A DNA stretch of 64,000 bases from Bacteroidota bacterium (GCA_027484685.1 JAIXSO010000066.1:785-64784), one strand, 5' to 3'; numbered from the stretch's first letter, positions 6,175-61,551 are shown. Notes: generated from the letters alone by a model not told the origin. Translations and numbers: made by a program.

Positions 6175-6177
6175 TTT

Positions 6178-19883: not shown

Positions 19884-19986
19884 TCTAGTTTATAACTAAG
19901 TTTACCTCAAATTAACGTGAAAAAGTTTAAATATATTCACTCATAAAATATAAAGCAATATAAGTTATTTGGATAAATTTTAAAAA

Positions 19987-20100
19987 ATGGCGGGACGCCT
20001 ATCAAACTCACACTCGCAAGATGCGAGCGAGTGCGAAGGGGTGTGAGATTGCTTCGTATCCGATAGCTATCGGACTCGCAATGACGTTATTATTGTATAT
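19987..20100. other. GC-rich, highly structured ~110-nt element in an AT-rich spacer (candidate ncRNA, 5' leader or terminator complex)
   Basis: Nested hairpins: ggcg/gga/cgcc; then ctcacac-tcgca-agatgcgagcgag-tgcga-agggg-gtgtgag; then the perfect 16-bp palindrome tccgatagctatcgga. The actcgcaa motif is repeated. It lies between the 3' end of the FG-GAP gene and the 5' end of the 620-aa gene. Confidence 0.35.
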
Positions 20101-44434: not shown

Positions 44435-45565
44435 TTACATCATTATATCAGCCAATTGTTTGGCAATATTACTACCTAAAGCAACACCCATCCCATTTAA
44501 CCTAGCTCCAATGAAAATATGATTATCAATTTCTTTTACAATTGGGGATTTATCATTTCCAAAAGCCATAATACCAGCCCACTGCCTATCTATCGCAAAA
44601 TCAATATTTGGCAATATTATGCTTTGTAAATAGTCAATCAATTTTAATTGAATGGTTTCATTTCGTTCGAATTTGGTAGTATTTTCTGTTTCAAAATCAA
44701 CATTTCTTCCGCCACCAAACAAAATTCTATTATGAATATTTCTAAAATAATAAAAACCCTCATCAAAACTAAAAGTACCTTTAATTTTTAAATTTTCAAT
44801 TGGCTTTGTTACCAAAACCTGTCCTCTTCCAGGATTTATAGTCAATTCAGGAAAAATATTTTTTGTGAAAGCATTGGTACAAAATGCTACTTTATTTGCT
44901 ACAAAATGACAATTTAATCCATCAGATGATTGACAATTTAAAGAAACCTGTCCATTATTAATCGAATAATTTTCAACCAAAGCTCCGGTTATTATTTTTA
45001 CACCTAAATTAGTTACATAATTTATTAAGGAGTTCATCATCAAACCGGTATCAATTTGCCCTTCAAACGAGTTGAAAATAACTGAATTTATTTTCTCAGT
45101 TGAAAAACCAAATCTTGAAACAGCTTTACTATCTTCTGAAAAAACATTTTGATTAAATATTGGATAAAGTAAATTATTAATAATTGGTAATTTTTCCAAA
45201 ACATTATTTGAACTATCATTTAAAACAAGCTCATAACCACCATTATTTTGAAAATCTATATTTATATCTCCTAGTCTGTTCCTTAATGCAACCAAACCAT
45301 TTATTCTACTATTCACCAATTCAAGGAGTGCTTTTTCTCCCATGATTTTTAAATCGTAAGCAAGTTCAGAAACAGATCCAAAACAAGCAAAACCAGCGTT
45401 TTTAGTAGAAGCACCTGTAGGCAATAATCCTTTCTCTAAAACCAAAATCTTAGCACTATTCTTTCGCTCTTTAATTTCGGCAGCTAACGAAAGTCCCGTA
45501 ATACCCGAACCAACAATTATAAAATCATATTCAGTAAAATATTGCTGTTCCCAATAACTAATCAT
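44435..45565 (-). CDS. FAD-dependent oxidoreductase (DAO/glycine-oxidase-like)
   Basis: Rossmann dinucleotide-binding motif DFIIVGSGITGLSLA at the N-terminus. Start set to the ATG for MISYWEQ.... The track ORF begins at a TTG inside the upstream terminator hairpin. Confidence 0.7.
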   Translation of the reverse strand: MISYWEQQYFTEYDFIIVGSGITGLSLAAEIKERKNSAKILVLEKGLLPTGASTKNAGFACFGSVSELAYDLKIMGEKALLELVNSRINGLVALRNRLGDINIDFQNNGGYELVLNDSSNNVLEKLPIINNLLYPIFNQNVFSEDSKAVSRFGFSTEKINSVIFNSFEGQIDTGLMMNSLINYVTNLGVKIITGALVENYSINNGQVSLNCQSSDGLNCHFVANKVAFCTNAFTKNIFPELTINPGRGQVLVTKPIENLKIKGTFSFDEGFYYFRNIHNRILFGGGRNVDFETENTTKFERNETIQLKLIDYLQSIILPNIDFAIDRQWAGIMAFGNDKSPIVKEIDNHIFIGARLNGMGVALGSNIAKQLADIMM

Positions 45566-45581
45566 AATTTCAATTATAAAT

Positions 45582-45618
45582 AAAAAAGCTGCCTTCAGCA
45601 ATGTGAAGGCAGCTTTTT
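45582..45618 (-). terminator. Rho-independent terminator ending the sigma / anti-sigma / giant-adhesin transcription unit
   Basis: Hairpin agctgccttca/gcaatg/tgaaggcagct. On the minus strand it is followed by a T-run, 20 bp past the stop of the 1984-aa gene. Confidence 0.7.
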
Positions 45619-45636
45619 AAGTGTGTTACAACTAAT

Positions 45637-48600
45637 TTATTGTCTAATTAAAGTAATTGAACCTCTTACGGTTTTTTCTTCGCCACCACGCAATTGGTAA
45701 GTGAACAAGTAGTAATAAGTTCCAGCAGGATTTTCAGCACCATCATTATTGGTTTTTCCGTTCCACATTTTTTCAGCGTTATCGCTTTCAAAAATAGTGT
45801 TACCCCATCTGTTCCAAACAATTAAACTATATTTTTTGTATCCAACAATTTCAATTTTGAACTCATCGTTCTTACCGTCACCATTTGGAGTAAATACATT
45901 TGGAATATTGATTTTACTCTTAGGTAAAATAACTTGAATTATTTTACAAACTGAATCAGGACAACTTTGTGTACCAGCCACATCAGCTATAATACACACA
46001 TTGAACGATCTTGAAGAATCAATATTAAAGGTTTGAATAAAGTCATTCAAATCGCTTGATTCATCGAAATCTTTAGGGAAACCTTCGTAAAGACTTCCAT
46101 CAGGATTGTAGATTTTCCAAGTGTATTTATCTGATATAACTGTATCAGAGGTATTAACCAATCTAAATCTAGCTTCGCCAGCTTCAGTGGCTGTAAAGTC
46201 TGCTTTTGATTTAGCAGCTACCATAGTAATTGTATCGTAATTAGCACAAGGAGAATACTTGTTATCAAACCTAGTTGAATTTAACACCAATTTATATTGT
46301 CCTACTGCATTAAATTTATACTGCCAACTTGTATCGGTAATATAATTTGTTTTCAGTAATGAATCTATTCTTGTACCAAAATTGGCATCAAATACATCCA
46401 TTCTATACCTAGTAATAGTATCTCGGTCTGAATTGTTAGTTAACCTAAACACTTCACCAACACAAACCGTATCCTTACTTGATAACATATTTACTTTATA
46501 AGGTACATTCACTGATATTATGATTGGTTTTTCAAAACCGTCCACTGTATCAGGGGTAAATACTGGTCTACATGCACTGGCACTTCCATCTTCTGTATTA
46601 TATGCTTCAGCACTTATATAATAAGTACCTGGTTGATCGTAAAAGAATACAGCAGTATCTATTCGAGAGTATTTAATAGGCACAAAATATTTATCTGGAC
46701 GACCAGAACGTATAATAGTTAATTTGGTTGGGGTATCAATGGTAGGGTCACTCCATGGTTCTCTTTCTGGAATACTAACAACTCTAACTCTATGCGGCAC
46801 ACAGCCTAAAGTATCATCTAAAATTACCAAATGAGGACGAGGACCAGCAATAAAGATATCTTTTAATGCAGTGTCAGTACATCCTTGTTCTGTATTAATG
46901 GCAATTCTAAGTGTATATTTACCATTTCTTCTGTAGTCATAAATAGGGTCTTTTAAAATAGACTGAGGCAATTTTGAGTTATAAACTTTATCACCAAACC
47001 ACCATTTCCAACCAGCAATTCTATCTAAAGTGTCTGAAACATCTGCATAATTTTGTAAAACTTGAGTTGAATCTTTGAATATAAATTTATCACCACAAGC
47101 ATAGTAATCTTTTGCATCAATTTTAGCTATTGGCTTCACTACATTCACATATTGAACACAAGTATCCCAACGTCCTGTACTATCAATAGAATACATAGAA
47201 ACCTTATATCTACCATATTTAGGATATTTATGGGTTACTGTAGAAACTTCATTTCCTGTAATTGGAGTATTTGGACGCAAATGATCAATTACACCATCAC
47301 TTTCAAAATCCCAATATACACGTTCGTAGAAATATGTTTTCTCTTTATAACAACGTGCCAGTGGAGTTCCTTGGTCATTATTGATTATAACAGGCGTTCT
47401 AGGATTAGCATTAGTTGTTCCGTATCCAGTTGGGCAAACGGTTAAGGTAGCAGGGAAAACTTTATAATCTGTGAAATCATAAATAGGCGTTGGTCTGATT
47501 GAATCAAGAGGATAATTTGTTCTGGTATATGCCCATTGGTGCATATTTCCTCGGTCATGATGCAATAAATCATTCTCTTGAGCTGGAATATTCAACGGAC
47601 GAGAACAATTGGTTGATGGATACCAATACCTAACAGAATCTCTAAAAAAGACTGTTTGACCTTCACAGAAAACAGTATCCAATTGGCCATCACCATTTAA
47701 TATGTCGAATGTATCAATTACACCAATAACAAGATTCGATTTAGCAAAACTTTGGCAACGTGAATAGGTATTGGTAACCATGATATGATTAACTTCTGTA
47801 ATGTCGCCTTTTCTTTCTAAATTTCCACTTCCACCAATTATCATTTGTTCAAATGAAGATTTATAGTACCTATGAGTAATTGGAGTAAACAATAAACTTG
47901 AATCCCTCACATTGATAGTAGTATCATATTTAGGAAATAATTTATTTACATCATCGCAAGCATATTTTATTTCAATAATAGTATCTTTTCTTAATCTAGT
48001 ACCAACATTAAAATATTCAGCATATTGGAATTCCCATGGCAGCGTTAAAGCATTAAAGTGGTATCTAATTCTATTATAAGGAATATCTTCACCAGGTTGG
48101 TAGTAGAACGAATCAACTGTAGCTGTTCCATCACCCCAATTCCAAATATCAGCGATTACATTGTCTTGTTGTTCTACTTTGTAATGAAATGTAACATCGT
48201 CTCCCTTACCTCTTAAATAACACATTGAATTTTTGTTATTAAAATCAACATTTTCATATGTAAAGTTTGCAGTAGTATATGCAGCCTCTAATTCAATGAA
48301 TCTAAAGAAATTATGATACCAAACTGTATCACTTATACAACCTGGCAAATTACAATTCGTTGGAGTTAAACAACCTGTTCCTACAATTAATCCAATAGTC
48401 ACAAATCCTTTTTTATCATAAGGCATATTAGTTGCACCAACTGGGCTGCCTCCATTTGGATAATAATAAACAAAGGTAGATCCGCCAGATGCGCTAGTCC
48501 AAGCTTGTGGAGGAGGATTGTAATTTGGGCTATTCCACATAGGAGGCATATTAGTACCACCTGGTGTTAAACCACCTCCAAAACCAACAAATTGATCCAA

Positions 48601-51591
48601 TACACAGGGGGTATTATCATGTCTGTCTAACAAGGAGTCATAATTTATTTGCAAGAAAGTCCTTGAACTACTTGGTAAGATACCTGGTGACTGAACAGAC
48701 CTTGTAGTGTCCATGTAACCATTTCTGTCAAAAATAATTTTAGCGGTACCACCAAACACCCCGTTGGTTCTTCCTGGACATATTCTTCCATCTTGTGCCA
48801 TACCATAAGCATCTGGACGGGTAAATGATAAAGTTACAGTGCTTGAAGCGCTACAATCCCAATCATCTAACATCAAAGAATCAAAAACTATTGAATCTTT
48901 CATTGTTTTAGTAAATGGATCATAAACTTTTAATGTATCAGGCTTTGTTTTTACCAATCGGTAATCAGGATCAGCGGAAATATTATTCAATGAATCCTTT
49001 TCTTTTAAAGTAACAGTAATATCTTGGATTACTTGACGTTTGAATGCATATTCATACAATGTAGTTGGTGGTGTTAAACCAGGGATAATATCATTACCTT
49101 TATAACGTCTTAGACGTTTATCATTAGCGATAGTTAAATTTACGTTCAGTAATCCCGTATCAATTCTAGTTCCAGCTGGAATCAAATCCATCCAATTACC
49201 CCTTGCAGCAGAAATAGGATCTGGAATACCTCTATTTAAAGTAATTACTGTATTAGGATTAATATCTGGAGGCCAAATATTTAACATCGTATCTAAGCGA
49301 GTAGGTGTAGGACCAACTGCTAAAACAGGTTTATTCCAAGTTAAGGTATCACTAGGATGAACCCAATTCATACCAACAGGTGGTGGACCAGATGGAGGCC
49401 AACTAGTATAATTTTTTGACCATCTGGTGGTATCATAAGGTGGAAAATCATGACCATATTTATTCCAAATTAATACCTTATCCCAATTTACATATTGATG
49501 TGTTGGAAGTGTATCATGAGAGAAATTACAACCATTGAATCTTCCTAGATAGTTGCGTCCGTTGGCAACAAAAGCTCCAATAGTCCTGTTTTGTAAATCT
49601 GCAGCGTCAGAGTAAGGCTCTAAACCACCATTAGCTGCTGAAGGATTTGGAATAGAATATGAAGTACAAGCAGGTGCATACGATTGTTCACCAAAATCCC
49701 AATTTATCCATAACCTATCAGATTGATAAGTTAATGTATTATTTGTAAATTGAACAGGGAATGACGGTCCACATTGTAATTTTTGCCACTGAACTATTTC
49801 TCTAGGAGGACCTGGAGGTGGGGGATTTTCAATCCTAGCATCTGGACCTAAAATATTTACACCTAATGCAATTAAATCATGGTTTAGTGCTGAGGACACA
49901 GGATTACAATATTCCTTATTAAAAGGTACAGTTATTAATGTGCTTGTAAAAGGATTTCTAAAAGTAATATTTGTAGTGGTGGTGTATTTATTAACACAAT
50001 CAAATGAACCATTATTAAAGAAATCCCAATTTGAACTCATTGAATCTGACCAACCAATATGACGGGCAGTTACACTTAATATTAATGTTGGATCAACAGG
50101 ACTAACAGCCGTATCATAAGCATACTCTGAAATTTTTCCATTGTAATTATAATATTGCGGATTAGCTGGAGTATTAGGAGTTAGTAATCTACCATTTCTA
50201 GTATAAAGAATTGGATTAACTATATAACTGTTTTGATTAGAAGCCGTTCCATTGGGTATAAAATAATCTTGGTATTGATATCTATTTTTGTCTTTTGGCA
50301 GTGTATCTATCCTTGAATAAAAAGTATATGTTTTAGGAAGTGCTCCAGGACAAACTACCGTTAATGTAGGGAAAAACTGACCTAAGCCTTTGTATTTATA
50401 AGTAGGCTGATCAACACTTGGAAAAATATAATTAGTAGCATTAGGTTCATATGGATCGTTAAAACTCCATACAAAATTAAGTTTAGTTCCACCTTTTCCA
50501 GCAAGTTCCCCATTGTTATAAAGGGTTACAGCAGCCTCACCCGGTTTTTTAAAGCAAACTGAGTCTGCTATCGAGTCATTTTGAATATCACGTTTAGTTA
50601 ATAATTCAATTTGATAAATAATATTTTCAGGTAATTGTAAACCCGTAGATTTATAATAGAATGTATCTGCACACCTTTGGGTTTGCACTATTAAATATGG
50701 ATAAAAAACATTATTATCATAATATGTATGAATAAATGGCCTTGTCCATATATTTAAATCACTTGTAACAGTATTTGGTGGACCTTTCTCATATTTTTTA
50801 CCATCACCAAAATCAAATATAAATTTTGTTACTGCTGAAAAGCCTAATGGAGTGGTATTGGTAAAAATATATCTCGAACTATCACATCTTGGTGAACCAG
50901 TAATAGTAAAGCTCGGTTTTAAATCAGGGGCAATTGAAATAGCTCTCGCACTTAAAGCGTCAATTAGAGGATCGGTAGTACAACCAACCGAATCTGTTAC
51001 TTTTAAACCAACATTGAACGAAGGATTACTAATAGCATATTTATGGCAAACCAAACGTGCATTGGTATCGGTTTGGGTTAAGGCATTACCATCCCCAAAA
51101 GTCCATTCATATCTAACCAAAGGCGCTGTACCTTGTTTTGATGTATTGGTAAAACAATACTCATTATTTTTAAAACATTGGGTATCTCTACTCGCCATTA
51201 CAAACTTGGTAGTTGGTCTTTCCCAAATTTTACGTTGTTTGGTTACCACAATGTCTGGACCATTGGTTCTTTTTACAATAACGGTTACAGTGTAAATGCC
51301 ACCGTTCATGTATGTTTTTAAAAAATTGGGACTTGGTGCTTGAGTTACAATTCTGTTATTTACCGCAGTATCATTAGGTATACCCCAACGAATGGTATAC
51401 GAAATTACATCTGCAGGAGCAATACCTGGAGTAATATTAACCGTGGTTAAATCCACTCCTGCACAAGGATTTGCGGGGGACATTGTAAAATCAGCTTGGG
51501 CTTTAGCCATTACTGACACAAACAATAGAAAGACCAAAACAGCACTCTGCCTCAGTTTTCGTGTTGATAGTTTAAAGTACATATATTTCAT
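45637..51591 (-). CDS. Giant (1984 aa) secreted cell-surface protein with T9SS type B (gliding-motility-associated) C-terminal domain
   Basis: Signal peptide, then about 1850 aa of beta-rich PKD/Ig-like repeats with many Cys pairs. The C-terminus IPNVFTPNGDGKNDEFKI...WNRWGNTIFE...WNGK...GTYYYLF is the hallmark of the type B sorting domain. Confidence 0.9.
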   Translation of the reverse strand: MKYMYFKLSTRKLRQSAVLVFLLFVSVMAKAQADFTMSPANPCAGVDLTTVNITPGIAPADVISYTIRWGIPNDTAVNNRIVTQAPSPNFLKTYMNGGIYTVTVIVKRTNGPDIVVTKQRKIWERPTTKFVMASRDTQCFKNNEYCFTNTSKQGTAPLVRYEWTFGDGNALTQTDTNARLVCHKYAISNPSFNVGLKVTDSVGCTTDPLIDALSARAISIAPDLKPSFTITGSPRCDSSRYIFTNTTPLGFSAVTKFIFDFGDGKKYEKGPPNTVTSDLNIWTRPFIHTYYDNNVFYPYLIVQTQRCADTFYYKSTGLQLPENIIYQIELLTKRDIQNDSIADSVCFKKPGEAAVTLYNNGELAGKGGTKLNFVWSFNDPYEPNATNYIFPSVDQPTYKYKGLGQFFPTLTVVCPGALPKTYTFYSRIDTLPKDKNRYQYQDYFIPNGTASNQNSYIVNPILYTRNGRLLTPNTPANPQYYNYNGKISEYAYDTAVSPVDPTLILSVTARHIGWSDSMSSNWDFFNNGSFDCVNKYTTTTNITFRNPFTSTLITVPFNKEYCNPVSSALNHDLIALGVNILGPDARIENPPPPGPPREIVQWQKLQCGPSFPVQFTNNTLTYQSDRLWINWDFGEQSYAPACTSYSIPNPSAANGGLEPYSDAADLQNRTIGAFVANGRNYLGRFNGCNFSHDTLPTHQYVNWDKVLIWNKYGHDFPPYDTTRWSKNYTSWPPSGPPPVGMNWVHPSDTLTWNKPVLAVGPTPTRLDTMLNIWPPDINPNTVITLNRGIPDPISAARGNWMDLIPAGTRIDTGLLNVNLTIANDKRLRRYKGNDIIPGLTPPTTLYEYAFKRQVIQDITVTLKEKDSLNNISADPDYRLVKTKPDTLKVYDPFTKTMKDSIVFDSLMLDDWDCSASSTVTLSFTRPDAYGMAQDGRICPGRTNGVFGGTAKIIFDRNGYMDTTRSVQSPGILPSSSRTFLQINYDSLLDRHDNTPCVLDQFVGFGGGLTPGGTNMPPMWNSPNYNPPPQAWTSASGGSTFVYYYPNGGSPVGATNMPYDKKGFVTIGLIVGTGCLTPTNCNLPGCISDTVWYHNFFRFIELEAAYTTANFTYENVDFNNKNSMCYLRGKGDDVTFHYKVEQQDNVIADIWNWGDGTATVDSFYYQPGEDIPYNRIRYHFNALTLPWEFQYAEYFNVGTRLRKDTIIEIKYACDDVNKLFPKYDTTINVRDSSLLFTPITHRYYKSSFEQMIIGGSGNLERKGDITEVNHIMVTNTYSRCQSFAKSNLVIGVIDTFDILNGDGQLDTVFCEGQTVFFRDSVRYWYPSTNCSRPLNIPAQENDLLHHDRGNMHQWAYTRTNYPLDSIRPTPIYDFTDYKVFPATLTVCPTGYGTTNANPRTPVIINNDQGTPLARCYKEKTYFYERVYWDFESDGVIDHLRPNTPITGNEVSTVTHKYPKYGRYKVSMYSIDSTGRWDTCVQYVNVVKPIAKIDAKDYYACGDKFIFKDSTQVLQNYADVSDTLDRIAGWKWWFGDKVYNSKLPQSILKDPIYDYRRNGKYTLRIAINTEQGCTDTALKDIFIAGPRPHLVILDDTLGCVPHRVRVVSIPEREPWSDPTIDTPTKLTIIRSGRPDKYFVPIKYSRIDTAVFFYDQPGTYYISAEAYNTEDGSASACRPVFTPDTVDGFEKPIIISVNVPYKVNMLSSKDTVCVGEVFRLTNNSDRDTITRYRMDVFDANFGTRIDSLLKTNYITDTSWQYKFNAVGQYKLVLNSTRFDNKYSPCANYDTITMVAAKSKADFTATEAGEARFRLVNTSDTVISDKYTWKIYNPDGSLYEGFPKDFDESSDLNDFIQTFNIDSSRSFNVCIIADVAGTQSCPDSVCKIIQVILPKSKINIPNVFTPNGDGKNDEFKIEIVGYKKYSLIVWNRWGNTIFESDNAEKMWNGKTNNDGAENPAGTYYYLFTYQLRGGEEKTVRGSITLIRQ

Positions 51592-51657
51592 TTTTATTTT
51601 TGTTTTAAACAGTTTGCTAACATAATATTATTTCATTCAATTACAAATTTTAAATCA

Positions 51658-52557
51658 TTAACGTATGAGTTTTATTTTGGTCATTTTGGTTTGCAATTTT
51701 TCACTATTCATAAATTTAAAATTCAAAACACCATAGTAAATACCACTATTACAAGCTTGTCCAGTTTTTTGACTTATACCATCCCAAGTAAAATTTTTAT
51801 CATTACTTTCAAAAACCAACTCATTGTTAAAATTGTAAATTTTTAAGTTAAATACCTTTTCGCCTTCAATTTCTATTACATACCTATCATTTGAGCCATC
51901 ACCATTTGGCGTTAATACATTAGGTATTTTAATATGTGATGATACATTTTTGTCTGTTTCGGTTGCTTCGGCATTATTTTCTGTATTTTCAATTGAATCA
52001 ATTTTATCATCCAAATCAATCTCAGGTATGGTTGGATTTGAAACTATTTCATTAACAACTTCGGGAGTAGAAGTATGTTCAAGATTTCTATTTGATAACC
52101 CTTCTTGCTGTTTATTCTCCACATTTAACTTATGCTCAATAAAGTTATCATTAATATAAGCCTCTTGGGTTTTAATTAAATTATTAGAACCATACTTTTC
52201 TTTATTTGTAAAAGTTTCTTTTGGCTTATTAGTTATATGTGTTTTGTCAAAACTAATTTCTGGAGAATTTACTTCAATTGGTACTTTTAATTCTGCAACT
52301 TTTGATTCGCTTTCAATATTTTCTTTTTTACTATTTTTTGTATAAAAATAAGTTGCTATTGAGGAAGGAATGGCCAAAATAGCTGCTACCTTAATTACAG
52401 TTAAAGCCACTTTACTTATAACAACTTTTCCTGCCACAGCACTGCTTTGCGCAGCAGCATTGGCTTGCACACCTTGCTCAATACCCACCCAAACGTTTGG
52501 CGCATCAGGAGCAAAATTTTGCATTTGTTGTTTTAATATTTCGTCTAAATTACTCAA
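51658..52557 (-). CDS. Anti-sigma-factor-like single-pass membrane protein carrying a T9SS type B C-terminal domain
   Basis: 299 aa. A ~45-aa cytoplasmic N-terminus, one TM helix (VVISKVALTVIKVAAILAIPSSIATYFY), an Asn/Glu/Lys-rich linker of about 140 aa, then IPNVLTPNGDGSNDRYVIEIEGEKVFNLKIYNFNNELVFE...WDGI...GIYYGVL, a type B CTD. The gene overlaps the stop of the ECF sigma gene by 4 bp. The start is either the TTG at 52557 or the ATG at 52524. Confidence 0.75.
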   Translation of the reverse strand: MSNLDEILKQQMQNFAPDAPNVWVGIEQGVQANAAAQSSAVAGKVVISKVALTVIKVAAILAIPSSIATYFYTKNSKKENIESESKVAELKVPIEVNSPEISFDKTHITNKPKETFTNKEKYGSNNLIKTQEAYINDNFIEHKLNVENKQQEGLSNRNLEHTSTPEVVNEIVSNPTIPEIDLDDKIDSIENTENNAEATETDKNVSSHIKIPNVLTPNGDGSNDRYVIEIEGEKVFNLKIYNFNNELVFESNDKNFTWDGISQKTGQACNSGIYYGVLNFKFMNSEKLQTKMTKIKLIR

Positions 52558-53090
52558 TTTTTTCTTTTATTATATTCTTTTAAAAAAGCAGCTCTTGCTC
52601 TTGCAAGTTGACTTTTTGATGTTCCTTCGTTTATTTGAAGCATTTCTGCAATTTCTGCATGCGAATATCCTTCAATGGCATATAAGTTTAAAACCGTTCT
52701 ATATCCTAAAGCTAATTTTTGCATGGTTTCCATAATTTCTTTTTGACTAATTTTATCTATTGTAAAATTATCAAAAACTAAATCATACTCATCAGCTATA
52801 TCAGTGATTTCAGTATAAAATTTATTTACCCTAATATTCTCTAAAGCACAATTAACAAAAATTCTCCTCATCCATGCTTCAATTACTCCTTTGCCTTCAA
52901 ATTGTTTTATTTTACTAAAAACCCTAATATAACCTTCTTGTAAAGTATCTCTAGCATCTTCAGGATTTTTACAATACCTTAAGCAGATACCATACATTTG
53001 TTTTGATGTAAATTCATACAATTGTTTTTGGGCTCGCGCCTCACCTTGTATGCATTTATCTATCAATTCTTGGCTTATGTTTTGGCTCAC
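52554..53090 (-). CDS. RNA polymerase sigma-70 factor, ECF subfamily
   Basis: 178 aa. A sigma-70 region 2 (DTLQEGYIRVF) and a region 4 helix-turn-helix (YSHAEIAEMLQINEGTSKSQLARAR). Apparent GTG start. Confidence 0.9.
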   Translation of the reverse strand: MSQNISQELIDKCIQGEARAQKQLYEFTSKQMYGICLRYCKNPEDARDTLQEGYIRVFSKIKQFEGKGVIEAWMRRIFVNCALENIRVNKFYTEITDIADEYDLVFDNFTIDKISQKEIMETMQKLALGYRTVLNLYAIEGYSHAEIAEMLQINEGTSKSQLARARAAFLKEYNKRKN

Positions 53091-53217
53091 TTTTATATTG
53101 CTGTTGGGTTTGATTAAAGAATTTATTTTATAGTTGCATGTTAAAGTAAAAAAAACTTAAATTTTTCTAAATGCTTTTATTACAAGTAATTTAATTTGCG
53201 TTTTTGTTTATTTTGTT

Positions 53218-56007
53218 TTGTTTATTTTGCAAAACTTGTCTGCTAAAAATATACATATCATTATTTTAACATTTTTGCTTTTAAGCTCACTGCCAAAATT
53301 ATATTCTCAAATAAGTGACCTTAGCGAAAACACAAATAACAGCATTTACTTTACCGAAAACAAAGGACAGTGGGATAATGACATAAAATTTAAATTTTGG
53401 AATGCCAATAACCATATTTTATTTAATCAAAACAACATTGGTTATTATTTTTTAAATGAAAACCAAGTGGCTCATGAAAACCAACATTTAAAAAAAGATA
53501 AGTTTAAAAATAATTCAATTGATGGGCATTTTATAACACTAAAATTTGTAAGTGCTAACGAAAATCCTAACATAATTTCGAATGGTAAACCTGCTCCTTT
53601 TTACAAAAATTTTTTTTTAGGCAGTAAACCTCAAAAATGGCAATCTAAAGTGCAATCGTTCACTCAAATAACTTACCAAAACTTATATAAACATATTGAT
53701 TTAAAAATTTCAGCTAAAAACAACTCCACTTTAAAATACGATTGGATTATAAAACCAATGGGAAATTTAGAAAACATAAAACTTGATTTTAAAGGGGCCG
53801 ATTCCGTTTATATTCAATACAACGAATTGTATATTGCGCATAGCCAAGGCATTTTAAAAGAACAAAAACCATTTGCGTACCAAATAATTAATGGCAAGCA
53901 AGTAAGAGTTGATGTTATTTACTGCATCACTAATAAAATAATTAGTTTCAAATCAAATAATTACAATAAAAACTACGATTTAATTATAGACCCAGATTTA
54001 ATTTTTAGCACTTACAGCGGTGCTACTGATGATAATTTTGGTTTTACAGCAACTTACGATAGTGAAGGAAATTTATTTTCGGGAGGGGTAAGTGGTGATG
54101 CTTTTGCAGGTAAATATCCTGTAACGCCAGGTGCATTTCAATTAACTTATAAAGGTGGCAATCAAGAAGCACCAGTAAATTTGGCTTGCGACATTACCAT
54201 AAGCAAATACAGCAGCGATGGTAAACAACTGATTTATGCTACTTATTTAGGCGGCTCAAAAAACGAATATCCGCACAGTTTGGTAGCCGACAATAACGAC
54301 AATTTGGTAATAATGGGAACCAGCAAATCAATTGATTTTCCGATGAGTTCTGACTCATACGATAATTCGCAAAATGGAGATATTGACATAATTGTAACCA
54401 AATTAAGCAAAGATGGAACTACACTGCTAGGCTCTACTTTTATTGGCGGTTTAGGCAGTGATGGACTGAATATAAAACCGTTTTTAAATACCTTTTATGC
54501 CGATGAATTTAGGGGAGACGTTACTATTGATAAGCAAAACAATATTATAGTTGGCAGTTGCAGTTTTTCAACCGATTTTCCTTTTACATCAGGTTCGTTT
54601 GGTGCATCCATTCCAAGTGCTATTCAAAAAGGAGTGGTTTTTAAACTTTCACCTACTTGCAATAATTTGCTATTTAGTGCTGCCATGCCAAGTAATAGCG
54701 AAGATGTTATTTACAGCGTTGACTTGAACCAAACTGACGATATTTTTATAGCGGGAACTACTACAGGCAATATGCAAATTCCAACTGCGACAAATTCATT
54801 TATAGGAGGAAATTCTGATGGTTTTTTTGCTAAAATAAAGTTTGATGGTTCGACTATTTTAAAAGCAAAATATTTTGGCACTACTCAAAACGACCAAGTG
54901 TTTAGTTTAGAATTAGACAATAATGAGGACATTTATATTGTTGGAAATTCGTTGGGCAATATTGCACCGATTGGAAATGTATATTCAGTTGCCAATGGAA
55001 AACAATTTATTAGCAAAATAAACAACGATTTTAGTACCATTAATTTTATAAGCACTTTTGGGCGAGGAGCGGCAGATGTTGATTTAAGTATAAACGCATT
55101 TTTGCTAGATGACTGCGGACGTTTATACATTAGTGGTTGGGGCTGCAACGACTCTCGATTTGGTCTTGGAGGAAATACACAGGGATTGCCAATTACCAAT
55201 GATGCATTTCAAAAAACTACCGATGGCAACGACTTTTATTTAATGGTGTTAGGCCAAAATGCTGAAAAAATATTGTATGCCACATTTTTTGGAGGAAATA
55301 GCTCACCTGACCATGTAGATGGAGGCACGAGTAGGTTTGACAAAAGGGGTTATATTTACCAATCAGTTTGTGCAAGTTGCCCAGCCAATGGCAACTTTTT
55401 AAGTGATTTTCCAACTAATACCGATGCAGTTTTTAAAACAAATGTGAGTCCGCGTTGCAGCAATGCAGCTTTTAAAATGTCGTTTAGGTTTAAAGAAGCT
55501 GCCATTGAAATGAATATAGATACTTGCGCCAAAACAGTTACACTTGGAACACCAACCGAAAATGCATTGAATTATTTATGGTTACTGCCAAACGGAAAAA
55601 CTAGTGTTTTAAAAAACCCAACTGTAACCATTGATGAAATAAACAATAAAGAGGTAGTGTTAATTTTAAATGCGAATACCAATTGTGCCGACACTGCCAA
55701 ACAAACCTTAAGCTTTAACGAATTATTTAATAAGGTGGATTTTAGTAATGCCTTTACACCAAACAACGATGGTGCAAACGATATGTTCTTTATTGATGGC
55801 ATTAGCCAATGTGGTGAATATGAATTAACCATTTTTAACCGGTGGGGGCAAGAAATATATAAAACCACTTCAAATCAACCCAAATGGGATGGAAAAACAA
55901 GTAATGGACAAGATGCGTTAGCGGGCGTTTATTATTATTTAGGTTATTATAAAAAACAAAATGAGCCCGAAGTAAAACTCCATGGAACAGTTACTTTAAT
56001 TAGGTAA
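53218..56007 (+). CDS. Secreted beta-propeller (SBBP-repeat-like) protein with T9SS type B C-terminal domain
   Basis: 929 aa. Signal peptide. Repeated YATYLGGS.../FIGG.../YFGT... beta-propeller repeats. The C-terminus FSNAFTPNNDGANDMFFIDGI...ELTIFNRWGQEIY...WDGK...GVYYYL is a type B CTD. Apparent TTG start. Confidence 0.85.
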   Translation: MFILQNLSAKNIHIIILTFLLLSSLPKLYSQISDLSENTNNSIYFTENKGQWDNDIKFKFWNANNHILFNQNNIGYYFLNENQVAHENQHLKKDKFKNNSIDGHFITLKFVSANENPNIISNGKPAPFYKNFFLGSKPQKWQSKVQSFTQITYQNLYKHIDLKISAKNNSTLKYDWIIKPMGNLENIKLDFKGADSVYIQYNELYIAHSQGILKEQKPFAYQIINGKQVRVDVIYCITNKIISFKSNNYNKNYDLIIDPDLIFSTYSGATDDNFGFTATYDSEGNLFSGGVSGDAFAGKYPVTPGAFQLTYKGGNQEAPVNLACDITISKYSSDGKQLIYATYLGGSKNEYPHSLVADNNDNLVIMGTSKSIDFPMSSDSYDNSQNGDIDIIVTKLSKDGTTLLGSTFIGGLGSDGLNIKPFLNTFYADEFRGDVTIDKQNNIIVGSCSFSTDFPFTSGSFGASIPSAIQKGVVFKLSPTCNNLLFSAAMPSNSEDVIYSVDLNQTDDIFIAGTTTGNMQIPTATNSFIGGNSDGFFAKIKFDGSTILKAKYFGTTQNDQVFSLELDNNEDIYIVGNSLGNIAPIGNVYSVANGKQFISKINNDFSTINFISTFGRGAADVDLSINAFLLDDCGRLYISGWGCNDSRFGLGGNTQGLPITNDAFQKTTDGNDFYLMVLGQNAEKILYATFFGGNSSPDHVDGGTSRFDKRGYIYQSVCASCPANGNFLSDFPTNTDAVFKTNVSPRCSNAAFKMSFRFKEAAIEMNIDTCAKTVTLGTPTENALNYLWLLPNGKTSVLKNPTVTIDEINNKEVVLILNANTNCADTAKQTLSFNELFNKVDFSNAFTPNNDGANDMFFIDGISQCGEYELTIFNRWGQEIYKTTSNQPKWDGKTSNGQDALAGVYYYLGYYKKQNEPEVKLHGTVTLIR

Positions 56008-56056
56008 AATAAATTTTATTTTCGATTATTGATTTTTATAACTTTAATATTTTTAC

Positions 56057-56869
56057 TTGAAGCTCCTTTTAAAAATAGTACTACTGATAATTGCATTTCA
56101 AAAAGTGAATGCGCAAATAGTGCATGACCCAATTGGCGCTAGGGCTTGGAGTTTAGGAGGAAGCAGTACTGCGGAAAGTAATGTATTTGCTATAAACAAC
56201 AATATGGCTAGCTCGGCCGAGTTAAAGCAATACCAAATTGGTATTTATAATCAAACTCGTTTCAGTATAAAAGAGCTTAATTTAATTAATTCAAGCATAT
56301 TAATTCCTACAAAACTATTTCATGTTGGAGCAAGTATAAACCACTTTGGTTACGATAAATACAACCAACAAAACATCAGCTTAGGAATTGCAAAAAAACT
56401 TAACAACAATTTTAACTTAGGTATTACGCTTAATTACCTTACCATTAACATTGCAGAGCAGGAAAATACAGGCGCTTTAACTGGAAGCTTAAGTGCCTTT
56501 TATAAAATTAATAAAAACTTGCAACTGGGTGTTTTATTATTCAATCCAACTTTAAGCAATTACTCAATTAATGGTTATGGAAAAATAAATACTTTTGGAA
56601 GAATTGGTGTAAAATACCAAGTAAACAAAAGCGTATATTTAATTGGCGATTTAGATAAAACACTAGAACAAGAAACCATTTTGAGAGGTGGTATTAATTA
56701 TGCTCTTCACCCCAATTTTGACTTAAGTTTAGGATATGCCAATAACCCTAATTATTTAACTTTTGGGTTTAATGCTAAAATAAAACAAATGGACTTGGCC
56801 TTTGCTGCTAGCATTCATGAAATATTGGGTTTTACACCACATATTGGTTTGATATTTTATGGCAAATAA
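56057..56869 (+). CDS. T9SS-associated outer-membrane beta-barrel protein (PorQ/PorV/PorP-SprF-like)
   Basis: 270 aa with a signal peptide. The N-terminal motif GARAWSLGGSSTAESNVFAINNNMA is of the FadL/PorV/PorQ type ('GARA.GMGGA....D.SA...NPA'). The beta-strand periodicity is barrel-like. It sits directly downstream of a type-B-CTD gene, as PorP/SprF-like genes usually do. Apparent TTG start. Confidence 0.55.
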   Translation: MKLLLKIVLLIIAFQKVNAQIVHDPIGARAWSLGGSSTAESNVFAINNNMASSAELKQYQIGIYNQTRFSIKELNLINSSILIPTKLFHVGASINHFGYDKYNQQNISLGIAKKLNNNFNLGITLNYLTINIAEQENTGALTGSLSAFYKINKNLQLGVLLFNPTLSNYSINGYGKINTFGRIGVKYQVNKSVYLIGDLDKTLEQETILRGGINYALHPNFDLSLGYANNPNYLTFGFNAKIKQMDLAFAASIHEILGFTPHIGLIFYGK

Positions 56870-58949
56870 AAGGTTTGTTTTTATAAAATTTTTAGGTGCT
56901 TTGGCAATGGTATTTTATAGCAAAATATTGTTAGCGCAAAAATTGCAAAGCAAAACCGAAATTATTTCAACCATTATTGAAAAATTAGTTGAAAACACAG
57001 AATCTACGATAGATTACACCGATTTGCAAGCCCAACTTGAATACTTGTACGACAATAAAATCAACCTGAACAAAGCGACCGATAATGAATTAAGGCAACT
57101 TATTTTTTTGAAACAAACCGATATTTTAAGCATTTTAAAACACCAAAAACTATACGGTAATTTTGAAAGTATTTATGAGCTGCAAGCCATTGATAATTTA
57201 AGTGACGAAAGCATTTATTTTTTAAAGCATTTTGTAAGTATAAATGAAGGTAACAAGCAACTAAAATTAAGCGAAATAAAACAAGTTGGCAAAACCGAAA
57301 TTGTACTACAACATGAAAACGATTTTCAGCAACGGTTAGGTTATAAAACAGATGAACTAAAAGCACAAAACAAACAATATTATTTAGGTTCGCCCTACCG
57401 ATATGTGGTAAGAGCTAAACAAAAATTAGGGAAAAATATTGACTTAGGATTTACTGCTGAAAAAGATGCTGGTGAACAGTTTTTTGAAGGTGAACAAAGG
57501 AATGGTTTTGATTTTTATTCAGCACATATTCATATAAAAAATGTGTGGCGTTTTAGCCAAATAATTATTGGCGATTACCAAGCTAATTTTGGGCAAGGAC
57601 TGACCTTTGGTAGTGGACTTTCTGCTCGAAAATCGGCTTTTGTGTTGAATGTAAATAGGTATTTTCAAAATATAAGGCCTTACCGAAGTGTAAACGAATT
57701 TGAGTTTATGCGCGGAGCTGCCATAAACTATCAATATAAAAATTGGACCATAATTGGTTTTGTATCAAGCAAAAAAATAAACACCAATTTTCAAACTGCC
57801 GATACCAACCAAATAAACACTTTTGATGGTTTTACAGGTTTTAATGTAACAGGCTTTCACCGCACGGCCAATGAAATTGCTGATAAAGAAAATGTAAATC
57901 AAACCATTTTAGGAATTCATATACAACATGATTTTAAATTTTTACAAGTAGGATTTACAGGAATAAAAACCAATTACAGCAGTCCATTTTTACCTAGCAA
58001 TGCCTTGTACCAAAAATATAATTTTACCGGAACACAACTTATAAATGCTGGTGTAGATTATAAATTAGCCTTAGGAAATGCTTTGTTAAGTGGCGAATTT
58101 TCGAGTAGCGATAATGGTGCATTTGCCACTACTCACTCACTTTTAATTGCTTTAGATAATAAACTAGACCTTTGTTTATTATACAGAAATTTTGATAAAA
58201 ATTACCAAGTAACTTATAATAATCCATTTGCCGAAAACAGCGATGGGAGAAATGAAACAGGATTTTATTTTGGCATAAGTTATAAACCTAAAAAAGCTTT
58301 GGTATTTAATCAATACATCGATTTTTATCAATCAAAATGGCTGCGTTTTTTGGTAGACGCACCAAGTAAAGGATATGATGTTTTGAATGAAATACAGTAC
58401 AATCCTTCCAAAAATTTAAATATGTATGTGAGGTATAGATTTGAAAGCAAAGAAAAAAATGAAATTAATAATAATGAAGCACTTAACGATGTATTGGCAG
58501 TGCAAGAAAAACAGCAATTTAGATTTCATATCAAGTACAAATTGAGCCTTTTGTTAGAAGCTGAAACAAGGTTAGAACAATCATTTTTTACTACAAAAAA
58601 TATTTCGCCTAGCAATGGAACTTTAATTTACCAAGATTTAAAATTCAAAAGTAATGGGGGCAAATGGACTTTCACCACTCGATTAGCACTATTTAGTATT
58701 AACGATTACAATGCAAGAATTTATGCTTATGAAGATAATTTGCCTTATACTTTTAGCGTACCTTTATATCAAAATAGTGGCAGCAGATTTTACCTAATGG
58801 CTAAATACCAAATAAATAAAAAAGTAAAACTTTTTGCGCGTTATGCGCAAACCAAATACAATAATGTAAACATCATTGGCAGCGGATTAGAGCAAATTAA
58901 TGGAAACACCCAAAGCGATTTAAGTATACAATTACAAGTAAGTTTTTAA
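56859..58949 (+). CDS. Outer-membrane beta-barrel protein with N-terminal ComEA-like tandem helix-hairpin-helix domain
   Basis: 696 aa. Signal peptide. Two HhH motifs (LNKATDNELRQLIFLKQTDILSILK and GNFESIYELQAIDNLSDESIYFLK). About 550 aa of amphipathic beta-strands rich in Y/F/N/G, ending in a C-terminal Phe (QLQVSF). It overlaps the upstream gene by 11 bp. Confidence 0.7.
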   Translation: MANKRFVFIKFLGALAMVFYSKILLAQKLQSKTEIISTIIEKLVENTESTIDYTDLQAQLEYLYDNKINLNKATDNELRQLIFLKQTDILSILKHQKLYGNFESIYELQAIDNLSDESIYFLKHFVSINEGNKQLKLSEIKQVGKTEIVLQHENDFQQRLGYKTDELKAQNKQYYLGSPYRYVVRAKQKLGKNIDLGFTAEKDAGEQFFEGEQRNGFDFYSAHIHIKNVWRFSQIIIGDYQANFGQGLTFGSGLSARKSAFVLNVNRYFQNIRPYRSVNEFEFMRGAAINYQYKNWTIIGFVSSKKINTNFQTADTNQINTFDGFTGFNVTGFHRTANEIADKENVNQTILGIHIQHDFKFLQVGFTGIKTNYSSPFLPSNALYQKYNFTGTQLINAGVDYKLALGNALLSGEFSSSDNGAFATTHSLLIALDNKLDLCLLYRNFDKNYQVTYNNPFAENSDGRNETGFYFGISYKPKKALVFNQYIDFYQSKWLRFLVDAPSKGYDVLNEIQYNPSKNLNMYVRYRFESKEKNEINNNEALNDVLAVQEKQQFRFHIKYKLSLLLEAETRLEQSFFTTKNISPSNGTLIYQDLKFKSNGGKWTFTTRLALFSINDYNARIYAYEDNLPYTFSVPLYQNSGSRFYLMAKYQINKKVKLFARYAQTKYNNVNIIGSGLEQINGNTQSDLSIQLQVSF

Positions 58950-58960
58950 AAAGAAAAAAC

Positions 58961-59266
58961 ATGACAGAAGAACAATACAATGCCATTACAACTTGGCAAA
59001 ATAATACATTTACGCAGGCCACTGCACTTTCAAAAATTGTGCATTTAAGGCAAGAAATAGAAGAACTAGCAGATGATGTAAAAAACAATAATCCAAACCA
59101 AAACTTAGAGTTTGCAGATTGTTTTATATTGCTTTTTGGCGCAGCTAATTCGGCTGGAATGAGTTATCAAAATATTATTGATGCCATTAACCAAAAAATG
59201 GAAATTAACTACCAACGCAAATGGGGTAAACCCAATGAAGACGGGGTTGTTAACCATGTAAAGTAA
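58961..59266 (+). CDS. MazG-like nucleotide pyrophosphohydrolase domain protein (DUF550-like)
   Basis: 101 aa. All-alpha MazG-like EExxE/D region (RQEIEELADD ... EFADCFILLF). Confidence 0.55.
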   Translation: MTEEQYNAITTWQNNTFTQATALSKIVHLRQEIEELADDVKNNNPNQNLEFADCFILLFGAANSAGMSYQNIIDAINQKMEINYQRKWGKPNEDGVVNHVK

Positions 59267-59268
59267 AA

Positions 59269-60279
59269 TTAAACTAATTCTCTAAAAATATCGCGTTTTA
59301 AGCGAAACAGCACTTTTGCATCGTACATAAAAGTATCAGTTATTACTTCCATTTCTTCTTTTACTTGCTTTGGAGAACGTTTGGTATTTCCTAGTATTTT
59401 AATAACCAGTTTTTGTGTTTCAGCTTCACTCTTTCCTAGTTCGGCCATAGCGGTTTCAAGGCAAACAGTTCCTAAACCTTCATCTTTTAATTTTCCGCTT
59501 TCAGCAATCATCCAACTAAGTGCATAAAAATTAGCCGATTGAAAACAAATTGATTTGGAAATAGAAGCCACTTCGGGCATTTTATTAAATGGACTTTCTA
59601 AAACTTGTTTTGTTAAATAAAAATTTAAAGTAGGATGTGAATTTTCAATGGGTTTTAGTTGAATTAAACCATTTAAAGCTTGTGCGTAAATACTTATCCA
59701 ACGCAATTGTCTTCTAAACTCGTGCACTCCATGTTCTAAATCGTTAAAATTTAAAATGCCAATTTCGTATTTGTATTCTATTTCTTCTATGTGCTTAATA
59801 AAAACTTGCGCCATAGCGCTTCTCTCCTCCTCTACTTTTTTCCAACTTGCAGTAGCCAACTCATTTTGAATATTGGCTATTTTAGGCTTTTCAGCATTTA
59901 TCCAATTGTGTTCAATAAGCAATTCATTAAGGTTATTTAATTCCAAATTGTAATGCTGTTTTAGGTTTTGAATAATAGACTTAGGAACAGCTTTATTTTT
60001 AGAAAATAATTTTATAAAACCATCATAATAATCAATTTTACCTAATTGATCTTCGAGCATTTTAAAGGCCAAACGCATTTTTTCAAAACGTTTTTTATTA
60101 TGAATCTCTTTGTAAATTCGAGCCAATGCTTGCAAATAAAAAAGCGATTGCCTAGCATTAGATTTAAATACAACCAAAGCGGGCTCATTGGATAATTGTG
60201 CAGCTTCTAAAGTGTCATTTAAAGCATTTAAATGAATTTGAAAACGGTTATAGCCTTCGGGAAAAAGTTTATTTTTCAT
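59269..60279 (-). CDS. Hypothetical protein (336 aa), all-alpha
   Basis: ATG start and no signal peptide. Predicted helical. No confident family assignment. Confidence 0.5.
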   Translation of the reverse strand: MKNKLFPEGYNRFQIHLNALNDTLEAAQLSNEPALVVFKSNARQSLFYLQALARIYKEIHNKKRFEKMRLAFKMLEDQLGKIDYYDGFIKLFSKNKAVPKSIIQNLKQHYNLELNNLNELLIEHNWINAEKPKIANIQNELATASWKKVEEERSAMAQVFIKHIEEIEYKYEIGILNFNDLEHGVHEFRRQLRWISIYAQALNGLIQLKPIENSHPTLNFYLTKQVLESPFNKMPEVASISKSICFQSANFYALSWMIAESGKLKDEGLGTVCLETAMAELGKSEAETQKLVIKILGNTKRSPKQVKEEMEVITDTFMYDAKVLFRLKRDIFRELV

Positions 60280-61050: not shown

Positions 61051-61551
61051 TTACCACGCTTTAGATTCTTGGCTCCAAAACTCTACCCTTACTCCAGCAC
61101 TAACTACATTAGCCAACACTTCATCGCGCATGTTTTGCTCTAAACTAAAAGTATAAATTCCTTTTTGTTTAAATTTGATACGTGGTTTGTATTGCAATTG
61201 GTATTCGTAAATATCACCTAAACCTTTTCCAAACCATTTTCCCCGCTCATCTTGTAAAGTAAATTCCATTCTTTCTTTCTGAGTGGTTTTATCGGGCAAG
61301 GTTTCAGTAACCCACATAAATAAATTGCTGTATTTGTAATCACCTGTAATACGCAAGTTTATGTACATATTGCAATACTTAGTGGTATCAGCAATATTTA
61401 CATCAAACACCACCGGATTTTTATAATCCCAATTATGTTCGGTTATGTCTTTGTTTTCTTCAAAAATGGGTGGCTCAGCACACGATTGAAAATAAAAAAC
61501 TACATACAACAATGCAATTATTGAAAAAACAGATTTACTCTTTCTTATCAT
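61051..61551 (-). CDS. gldH: Gliding motility lipoprotein GldH
   Basis: 166 aa. Lipoprotein signal with a Cys in FYFQSCAEP. The size, and the position immediately downstream of the PSP1/RicT-like gene and of holB, match the gldH locus described in Flavobacterium. Confidence 0.7.
   Translation of the reverse strand: MIRKSKSVFSIIALLYVVFYFQSCAEPPIFEENKDITEHNWDYKNPVVFDVNIADTTKYCNMYINLRITGDYKYSNLFMWVTETLPDKTTQKERMEFTLQDERGKWFGKGLGDIYEYQLQYKPRIKFKQKGIYTFSLEQNMRDEVLANVVSAGVRVEFWSQESKAW

Follow-up and report, generated by a model that had tools for sequence, protein, structure and literature searches.

The DNA analysed here is a 64,000-nucleotide (nt) stretch from an uncultured freshwater member of the Bacteroidota (GCA_027484685.1 JAIXSO010000066.1:785-64784), referred to below as the window, and all coordinates are counted from its first letter. 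Six open reading frames (ORFs) occupy a 13-kb segment of it (Table 1). On the minus strand, the gene for an extracytoplasmic function (ECF) sigma factor is followed by a gene for a 299-residue membrane protein and by a gene for a 1984-residue protein with PKD domains, a presumed adhesin. On the plus strand, divergent from the sigma gene, a gene for a 929-residue protein with a DUF7948 domain is followed by genes for a 270-residue outer-membrane barrel and a 696-residue barrel with a helix-hairpin-helix (HhH) domain. The 1984-, 299- and 929-residue proteins all end in a C-terminal domain (CTD) of type B that belongs to the secretion system of type IX (T9SS). The initial annotation of the segment described it as a single self-regulated island of T9SS cargo, and the six ORFs, the three CTDs, the gene overlaps and the terminator all lie where it had put them. 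The results described below lead us to restate the finding as a conserved pair, an ECF sigma factor and a CTD-bearing anti-sigma-like protein, accompanied by two type B cargo genes and lying beside an unrelated pair of outer-membrane genes. That the sigma factor has its cognate anti-sigma factor in the 299-residue protein, and that the two are coupled to type IX secretion, is in our estimate about as likely as not.

Domains were called with Pfam (gathering cut-off of 27 for CHU_C) and NCBIfam (cut-offs of 35 for TIGR04131 and 42.9 for TIGR02937). In profile searches the CTDs matched CHU_C at 78.7 bits (1984-residue protein), 57.3 bits (299-residue protein) and 75.9 bits (929-residue protein), all above the cut-off, in support of three type B CTDs. 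The two large proteins also passed the TIGR04131 cut-off (53.4 and 56.8 bits, respectively), which the 299-residue protein narrowly missed. The sigma factor contains only regions sigma-2 and sigma-4 (Sigma70_r2, 43.8 bits; Sigma70_r4_2, 56.8 bits; TIGR02937, 79.7 bits) and is a member of the ECF (group 4) sigma factors. Its stop codon and the start codon of the 299-residue protein share 4 bp (TTGA at 52557-52554, read directly), so that the sigma gene is translationally coupled to a gene for a CTD-bearing membrane protein.

The layout of the 299-residue protein given in Table 1 was common to all 41 family members aligned. When 1.84 billion representatives were searched by phmmer with residues 1-80, 48 clusters at 50% identity were recovered, nearly all of 277-330 residues, with three shorter fragments among them. 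Alignments of 18 and then 41 members uncovered an N-terminus with the consensus NIDELLKxxFxxFxPDAPDVWxGIxQGVQ, in which F15, P17, P20 and W23 are invariant, and the N-terminal 45 residues are the most conserved part of the protein outside the CTD. Since this conservation begins at residue 2, we take the TTG at 52557 as the start codon. The hydrophobic stretch that follows has a family median of 20 uncharged residues and a conserved aromatic residue at its end. It is flanked by 2.24 K+R and 0.28 D+E on the N-terminal side and by 1.83 K+R and 2.33 D+E on the C-terminal side, a positive-inside bias from which the N-terminus is predicted to lie inside the cell and the C-terminus outside. By inspection, a cleavable Sec signal peptide is not apparent, as 45-50 conserved residues precede the helix of about 20 residues, and the hydrophobic segment reads as a signal anchor rather than as a signal peptide. 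An Ala-rich sequence, QANAAAQ, precedes the helix. The linker is hypervariable, with a family median of 145 residues. A CHU_C match was found in all 18 members tested (Pfam, E<=1), the family C-terminus ends in ...L(I/L)R, and the KIKLIR of the 299-residue protein resembles the ends of the two cargo proteins.

The CTDs of the three proteins form separate orthologous classes, with identities of 50% within the class of the 299-residue protein, 65% and 69% within the two cargo classes, and 34-41% across classes. The CTD of the 299-residue protein showed no excess similarity to cargo CTDs of its own locus (43% versus 41%), which argues that the fusion is ancient and not a recent copy of a neighbour's CTD.

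We next consider how far this arrangement is conserved. Loci were fetched with the 299-residue protein and the sigma factor (21 loci) and with a narrower N-terminal profile (6 more, from metagenomes), and the window's proteins were mapped onto them by tblastn; individual loci are denoted by L numbers. The 27 sigma-bearing loci include 15 GTDB species-representative loci, one of them the complete genome UKL13-3, in addition to the 6 metagenome loci. Since a number of them share a contig or are almost identical, they amount to about 18 independent lineages, and every relative apart from UKL13-3 is a lake metagenome-assembled genome (MAG) or metagenome. In all 27 loci, as far as the contig extends, the order is the DUF7948-CTD gene and, divergently, the sigma gene, the gene for the 299-residue protein and the giant PKD-CTD gene. 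Sigma orthologues are 53-96% identical and each precedes a CTD-membrane protein, with the two genes abutting or overlapping throughout; an orthologue of the adhesin lies downstream of the membrane protein in all loci. The DUF7948 orthologue is divergent from the sigma gene in all core loci and is longer in distant lineages (1542 residues in L006, where the gene is called). The core is intact despite differing flanks (L004/L015; L007-9 and L012), and also where the 299-residue protein is 28-32% and the sigma factor 53-56% identical (L006/L021, L026-L030). The earlier expectation that the six genes travel together therefore held for the sigma, 299-residue, adhesin and DUF7948 genes, which are together in every related locus examined, but not for the two barrel genes, which are missing next to the core in UKL13-3-like and more distant lineages. 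Because the core is found in every locus, and the barrel genes are missing from distant lineages and occur alone elsewhere (see below), the 13-kb island is two juxtaposed modules, a four-gene core (about 45.6-56.0 kb) and an independent two-gene outer-membrane module (56.06-58.95 kb). Three contigs with this cluster (L010, L011 and L014) bear the labels 'uncultured Bifidobacterium sp.', 'Candidatus Methylacidiphilales' and 'Chitinophaga pinensis' in public MAG records. Their 299-residue proteins are 44-79% identical, and other cluster proteins up to 96% identical, to those of the window, and mistakes in binning or naming probably account for the labels.

The initial annotation suggested that an ECF-type promoter be sought upstream of the sigma gene, and such an element is conserved. 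The pattern GCAAC-N18-ATC[AT] lies about 48 nt 5' of the sigma start in 27 of 27 sigma-bearing loci and in none of three control loci. Over the 27 loci there is no variation in TGCAAC or in the ATC lying 18 nt beyond it, which in the window is part of TAATCA, and the 16-nt spacer is variable, giving the consensus TGCAAC-N16-nnATCw. An AAC-type −35 element with a short −10 element is what is expected of an autoregulated ECF promoter, and the element accordingly has the footprint of one, its function as a promoter being predicted from the sequence. The discussion of the SM6 motif in PMC9723704 bears on this form of ECF-type promoter. Elsewhere in the window a single exact match was found, inside the 270-residue barrel gene, and was set aside. 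A looser form inside the gene for the 299-residue protein was taken as a chance occurrence, because it is confined to close relatives and lies at shifting positions.

A second conserved sequence in the divergent region, the 19-bp block GCATTTAGAAAAATTTAAG, includes a pair of half-repeats in direct orientation, each about 11 nt long (TTTAGAAA / TTTAAG...). It could be an operator or an activator site, possibly shared by the divergent promoters. Reading the block as a −35/−10 pair in either direction was rejected, since its spacing to TGCAAC varies between 15 and 17 nt and its flanks are not conserved.

The two cargo genes carry upstream elements of other kinds, so that the term 'self-regulated' applied to the whole island is backed as far as a promoter motif of the sigma operon and no further. 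The adhesin has a signal peptide, PKD domains (PKD_4, 61 bits), a long middle part with no assigned domain, and the CTD at residues 1894-1984. The 66-nt gap before its gene holds the sequence ATGTTAGC(A/G)A, which does not vary in any lineage, even at 28-32% protein identity, and is preceded at 19-20 nt by TTG. This element reads as a housekeeping-type promoter box, with one mismatch to the Bacteroidota pattern TTG...TAnnTTTG (the consensus as cited in PMC9723704). Another possibility is that a leader ORF of 9 codons (MLANCLKQK and a stop codon; 51623-51594) begins with the ATG at 51623. In L004, L021, L026, L029 and L030, the ATG of the ATGTTAGC element shares the reading frame of the adhesin.

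The 929-residue protein has a signal peptide, a DUF7948 domain (193.7 bits), probable beta-propeller repeats (the SBBP repeat was borderline, 20.4 versus 20.5) and a CTD at residues 841-929. Its gene may start at 53236 (a gene call of 923 residues) instead of 53218, an ambiguity created by a perfect 14-bp tandem duplication at this place, and the divergent intergenic region measures 127-145 bp depending on which start is used. Among the loci compared, only the window and L001, a Logan copy identical to it, have the duplication. A promoter-like TAnnTTGY box is thereby doubled (53209-53216 and 53223-53230), and in the related loci of this clade a single TA(C/T)TTTG(C/T) box is found at a fixed offset. 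The boxes resemble the SM5 box of Flavobacterium psychrophilum, which drives remFG-sprCDBF, the sprB operon (PMC9723704), and we regard them as candidate SM5-type elements.

Table 1. Genes and sequence features of the 13-kb segment, in window coordinates.
Feature	Position	Strand	Remarks
Intrinsic-terminator-like hairpin closing the sigma/299-residue protein/adhesin unit	45583-45618	-	15-bp stem, 6 G-C pairs, then T-run
1984-residue PKD/type B CTD protein gene	45637-51591	-	ORF
Conserved element 5' of the adhesin gene	51594-51647	-	TTTG 51647-51644, 19 nt, TATGTTAG 51624-51617
299-residue membrane protein with CTD, gene	51658-52557	-	ORF, TTG start
299-residue protein: type B T9SS CTD (residues 209-299)	51933-51661	-	ends KIKLIR
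299-residue protein: disordered E/K/T/N/P/S-rich linker (residues 74-208)	52338-51934	-	
299-residue protein: predicted single transmembrane helix (about residues 50-73)	52410-52339	-	hydropathy
299-residue protein: conserved N-terminal segment (residues 1-48)	52557-52414	-	alignment
ECF sigma factor gene, 178 residues	52554-53090	-	ORF, GTG start
Candidate ECF-type promoter of the sigma operon	53111-53138	-	-35 TGCAAC 53138-53133, 16-nt spacer, -10-like TAATCA 53116-53111
Conserved 19-bp block GCATTTAGAAAAATTTAAG	53156-53174	-	15-17 nt 5' of -35; kept in all lineages while surroundings diverge
Perfect 14-bp tandem duplication, TTTTGTTTATTTTG x2	53202-53229	+	Tandem Repeats Finder; over DUF7948 gene start
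929-residue DUF7948/type B CTD protein gene	53218-56007	+	ORF
270-residue barrel gene	56057-56869	+	ORF
696-residue HhH-barrel gene	56859-58949	+	ORF

A similar arrangement was found with other sigma factors. Two proteins recovered through their CTDs, P0088 (277 residues, L031) and P0081 (467 residues, L032), directly follow ECF sigma factors that are 41% and 45% identical, respectively, to that of the window, and in both a single hydrophobic stretch close to the N-terminus is followed by a spacer and then a type B CTD. The L031 pair (5475-6834) stands alone, with no adhesin gene, and in L032 (5458-12318) P0081 is followed by a PKD/CHU_C protein of 1634 residues. The L031 sigma gene is preceded by TGCAAC-N16-TAGTCA and that of L032 by GGCAAC. 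Because these related sigma factors also precede proteins with a hydrophobic stretch and a CTD, the design appears from the sequences to be broader than the family represented in the window.

In the mechanism that we infer, the conserved N-terminus of the 299-residue protein would lie in the cytoplasm and hold the sigma factor, a single helix would cross the inner membrane, and the disordered linker of about 145 residues would be long enough to span the periplasm, placing a complete type B CTD at the periplasmic end. The T9SS translocon or a PorP-like shuttle would recognise this domain as it would the CTD of cargo. Once engaged as a tethered pseudo-substrate, the anti-sigma factor would be inactivated by being pulled, cleaved or sequestered. 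The freed sigma factor would then transcribe its own operon from TGCAAC-N16-nnATCw. No terminator was found between the genes for the 299-residue protein and the adhesin, so that read-through from the sigma promoter is possible, and the adhesin gene would be transcribed as well. Sigma activity and at least part of the cargo supply would thereby track T9SS capacity. One could go further, and propose that tethered T9SS pseudo-substrates make up a class of anti-sigma factors of which the 299-residue protein is the founder, capture of the CTD freeing the sigma factor in a secretion-competence checkpoint that follows the logic of FlgM and sigma-28 with ECF and T9SS components; we offer this extension tentatively and would not yet bet on it. 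With a similar design present in further sigma lineages (L031 and L032), this may be a general route from the T9SS to transcription. A literature search for an anti-sigma factor carrying a T9SS CTD, incomplete in its coverage, returned only the paper on PorA (PMC7712824).

Several observations weigh against a sigma/anti-sigma pair coupled to secretion. No anti-sigma domain (class I anti-sigma domain/zf-HC2, RskA or FecR) was detected in 18 members of the family, which matched only CHU_C (Pfam, E<=1); the name 'anti-sigma' used in the initial annotation thus has no counterpart at the domain level, and it is the 4-bp overlap, the conserved adjacency to the sigma gene, and the hydropathy and charge bias indicating a single pass with a cytoplasmic N-terminus that argue for it. 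The CTD of the 299-residue protein scored 33.0 bits with TIGR04131, just below the cut-off, and it has no NRWG motif, which both cargo CTDs possess. When the N-terminal profile was compared with the L031 and L032 proteins, P-x-x-W was in register but the match was weak (hhalign probabilities of 16% and 58%), too weak to count as proof of homology between the N-termini. No conserved copy of the sigma-type promoter was found upstream of the DUF7948, adhesin or barrel genes, and because the two cargo genes have housekeeping- or SM5-type elements of their own, they may fall outside the sigma regulon. An adjacent PorP/SprF shuttle gene is frequent, though not universal, for type B cargo, and the window offers no such partner for the CTD: PorP_SprF (PF11751) and TIGR03519 gave no match among 40 ORFs scanned across the 64 kb. 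Finally, the mechanism assumes that the T9SS can engage a membrane-tethered substrate.

The architecture and gene linkage that favour a secretion-coupled pair are equally compatible with an anti-sigma factor whose CTD never meets the translocon. The 299-residue protein could instead be a periplasmic sensor of secretion stress, which would bind the CTDs of unsecreted cargo or compete with them for the shuttle, so that the sigma factor is turned on when type B cargo backs up, by a logic like that with which RseA and DegS respond to outer-membrane proteins that have failed to assemble. The stand-alone L031 pair shows that adjacent cargo is not required, and the divergence of the CTD from the cargo CTDs (no NRWG and lower scores with the hidden Markov models) would be expected of a domain that is no longer translocated. 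However, the conserved C-terminal ...L(I/L)R, the CTD motifs and a linker long enough to span the periplasm fit engagement at the outer membrane better, and the CTD does not co-vary with the cargo CTDs of its locus, as the identities given above indicate. We consider a stress sensor unlikely, although it deserves to be taken seriously.

We find it quite improbable that the 299-residue protein is simply a small secreted or surface-exposed T9SS cargo protein with a long conserved signal-peptide extension, similar to those of autotransporters, which is merely co-transcribed with a sigma factor controlled in another way. The absence of a detected anti-sigma domain is in accord with such a protein, as is the uncharged stretch of the window's own protein, which is just 17 residues long, with S-I-A, possibly a cleavage motif, coming after it; moreover, all characterised CTD proteins are secreted (PMC9143113). 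Against this, the family-wide length of the stretch, its terminal aromatic residue and the positive-inside bias point to a membrane anchor, and the strongest conservation outside the CTD falls in the very segment that would be only an extension. In every lineage the gene retains its 4-bp overlap with the sigma gene, and none of the adjacent genes offers a further candidate for an anti-sigma factor.

The two barrel genes make up the second module. The 270-residue protein is predicted to fold as a FadL-like barrel of 14 strands (AF2 pLDDT 80.6), and its best Foldseek matches were PorV of Flavobacterium johnsoniae (6h3i_F and 8gl6_F; TMq 0.76 and 0.74), followed by FadL and TodX. The match to the PorV/PorQ model NF033709 was below the cut-off (36.1 bits versus 90), yet full-length (positions 10-324 of 326). 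Among 28 family members, 27 matched the NCBIfam PorV/PorQ family (best E 2.7e-13) and 15 matched PorQ; PorP/SprF models gave no match to the barrel in Pfam (E<=0.01) and none to any of the 28 members in NCBIfam (E<=1). The PorV/PorQ-like barrel of the initial annotation is therefore supported by both fold and family matches, and the protein is a distant, short-looped relative of PorV/PorQ, neither a PorP/SprF protein nor an orthologue of PorV or PorQ. With no PorP/SprF-like gene in the 64 kb, the analogy to sprB-sprF that had been drawn for the island fails at its defining partner.

The 696-residue protein reads, as had been described, as an HhH domain and then a large barrel: a signal peptide is followed by a helical, ComEA-like HhH region at about residues 30-130 and by a predicted barrel of about 22-26 strands (pLDDT 78.8). 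HHH_3 scored 25.9 bits against a cut-off of 27, and many homologues carry PF12836; the profile of the protein matched ComEA 8dss with an E of 7e-4, over residues 67-126 only. In contrast to the small periplasmic or membrane-anchored ComEA-like proteins, it joins its HhH domain to a barrel some 560 residues long, and such a fusion of a periplasmic DNA-binding-type domain to a large outer-membrane barrel is unusual. The competence HhH protein of Riemerella anatipestifer was considered as a relative and rejected, as it has a different architecture, being periplasmic with its HhH at residues 236-301 (PMC8459023).

The barrel genes adjoin the core only in the clade in which the 299-residue protein is at least 41% identical, and they were not found in the recovered 5-10 kb flanks of the core in the distant lineages L006/L021 and L026-L030. 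More than 2,834 homologues belong to the 696-residue family, compared with about 80 for the core family. In L022 (7082-10091) and L023 (7176-10076), at 46-47% identity, a homologue of the 270-residue barrel (hhalign 99.9-100%) lies directly upstream of the HhH-barrel gene, with no sigma or CHU_C gene within 8 kb. The two genes overlap by 11 bp in the window (56859-56869) and are separated by 3-4 nt elsewhere. These results establish the barrels as a separate, widespread Bacteroidota pair that merely neighbours the core in this clade, and not as the dedicated partners they had been taken for; we found no literature on the pair. That the six genes together make up a single dedicated and self-regulated system for surface adhesins or motility, with the barrels as a private outer-membrane shuttle and anchor as SprF is for SprB, is very unlikely, for although adjacency and order are the same in the whole clade of at least 41% identity despite differing flanks (L004/L015, L016, L025), the 270-residue barrel resembles PorV, a CTD shuttle, and the 49-nt gap after the DUF7948 gene together with the 11-nt overlap would allow one operon, the distribution of the pair and its lack of PorP/SprF matches speak against it, as does a report, cited in PMC9143113, that type B secretion in F. 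johnsoniae does without PorV.

A gene for a MazG-like dATP/dGTP pyrophosphohydrolase (58961-59266, plus strand) starts 11 nt past the HhH-barrel gene and may be co-transcribed with it; its position is kept in L003, L007-L012, L016 and L025, and not in L004/L015. Beyond it, a 336-residue protein without a Pfam or NCBIfam match (59269-60279, minus strand) is conserved beside the cluster in L003, L010, L011 and L025. At the other end of the segment, the terminator hairpin sits between the stop codon of the adhesin gene (45637) and the called start of an oxidoreductase gene. The longest ORF of the latter (44435-45601) overruns the hairpin, and the gene as called is shorter (376 residues). Skp-Skp-BamA-UppS lies to one side of the segment and GldH-PSP1 to the other, with GldH at 61051-61551. 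The window is otherwise ordinary chromosome, with genes for IMPDH, PdxJ, fatty-acid synthesis, an ABC/HlyD/TolC exporter and DsbD. An Rfam scan of 43-61 kb gave a sub-threshold carA match within coding sequence and nothing else. Two cargo genes with type A CTDs (Por_Secre_tail) are present on the minus strand (9098-11614 and 20161-21966), encoding an S8 subtilase that carries He_PIG domains and a protein with FG-GAP repeats, and since they occur together with the type B genes, both CTD classes are in use in this genome. A 620-residue ORF with no Pfam match (18021-19883, minus strand) lies in the stretch of lowest GC content (18001-20000; 0.247 versus about 0.33).

How the synthesis of very large surface proteins is matched to T9SS capacity in the Bacteroidota is poorly understood. 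To our knowledge, the only route between cargo synthesis and the T9SS that has been studied is the indirect one through PorA, PorXY and SigP, which is confined to Porphyromonas. If the 299-residue protein acts as we propose, a CTD-bearing sigma partner would link secretion directly to transcription, and the activity of a sigma-dependent promoter would serve as a simple reporter of T9SS engagement. The proposal also bears on whether the T9SS can act on a substrate held by a tether in the inner membrane. In addition, the view of the locus is corrected, and the PorV/PorQ-like and HhH-fused barrels, as a separate and widespread outer-membrane pair, merit a study of their own.

The nearest precedent is the PorA-PorXY-SigP pathway of Porphyromonas gingivalis, in which a T9SS CTD protein likewise informs an ECF sigma factor (PMC7712824). 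PorA, however, is a soluble, secreted protein that is located on the surface, binds PorV and is attached to anionic lipopolysaccharide (A-LPS), and it acts through a two-component system on a sigma factor without a cognate anti-sigma factor (PMC7712824). In the module described here, a type B CTD is carried by a membrane protein translationally coupled to the sigma factor, there is no two-component system, and no sequence relationship to PorA is seen. The large cargo proteins resemble SprB and other type B CTD proteins that are paired with PorP-like proteins (PMC9143113, PMC12618676), in that they are large PKD or beta-propeller proteins with the CTD motifs, a ...TLIR end, and CHU_C and TIGR04131 matches; they differ in having no adjacent PorP/SprF-like gene, the neighbouring barrel being of PorV/PorQ type and not specific to the locus.

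The proposed logic, in which the anti-sigma factor is itself a secretion substrate and expression follows secretion competence, is that of FlgM and sigma-28. FlgM, in contrast, is a soluble protein of the cytoplasm, which a type III system exports in one piece, whereas the 299-residue protein is predicted to be anchored in the membrane, and the two are not homologous. Because the T9SS acts only from the periplasm outward, release of the sigma factor from an anti-sigma factor engaged by the T9SS would need pulling or proteolysis. With FecI/FecR/FecA the pair would share a single-pass anti-sigma factor, a periplasmic C-terminus proposed to contact an outer-membrane machine, and an autoregulated sigma operon, yet it has no FecR domain and no TonB-dependent transducer, and its predicted periplasmic end is a secretion signal on a disordered linker, not a folded sensor. 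Similarly, a single-pass anti-sigma factor co-transcribed with an ECF sigma factor recalls RseA, DegS and RseP of the sigma-E envelope stress pathway, and the QANAAAQ sequence may by analogy recall the degradation tags exposed by site-2 cleavage. The present pair differs from that system in that RseA and zf-HC2 domains are absent and no protease genes are linked to it, and the signal sensed would be the secretion signal that the anti-sigma factor itself carries.

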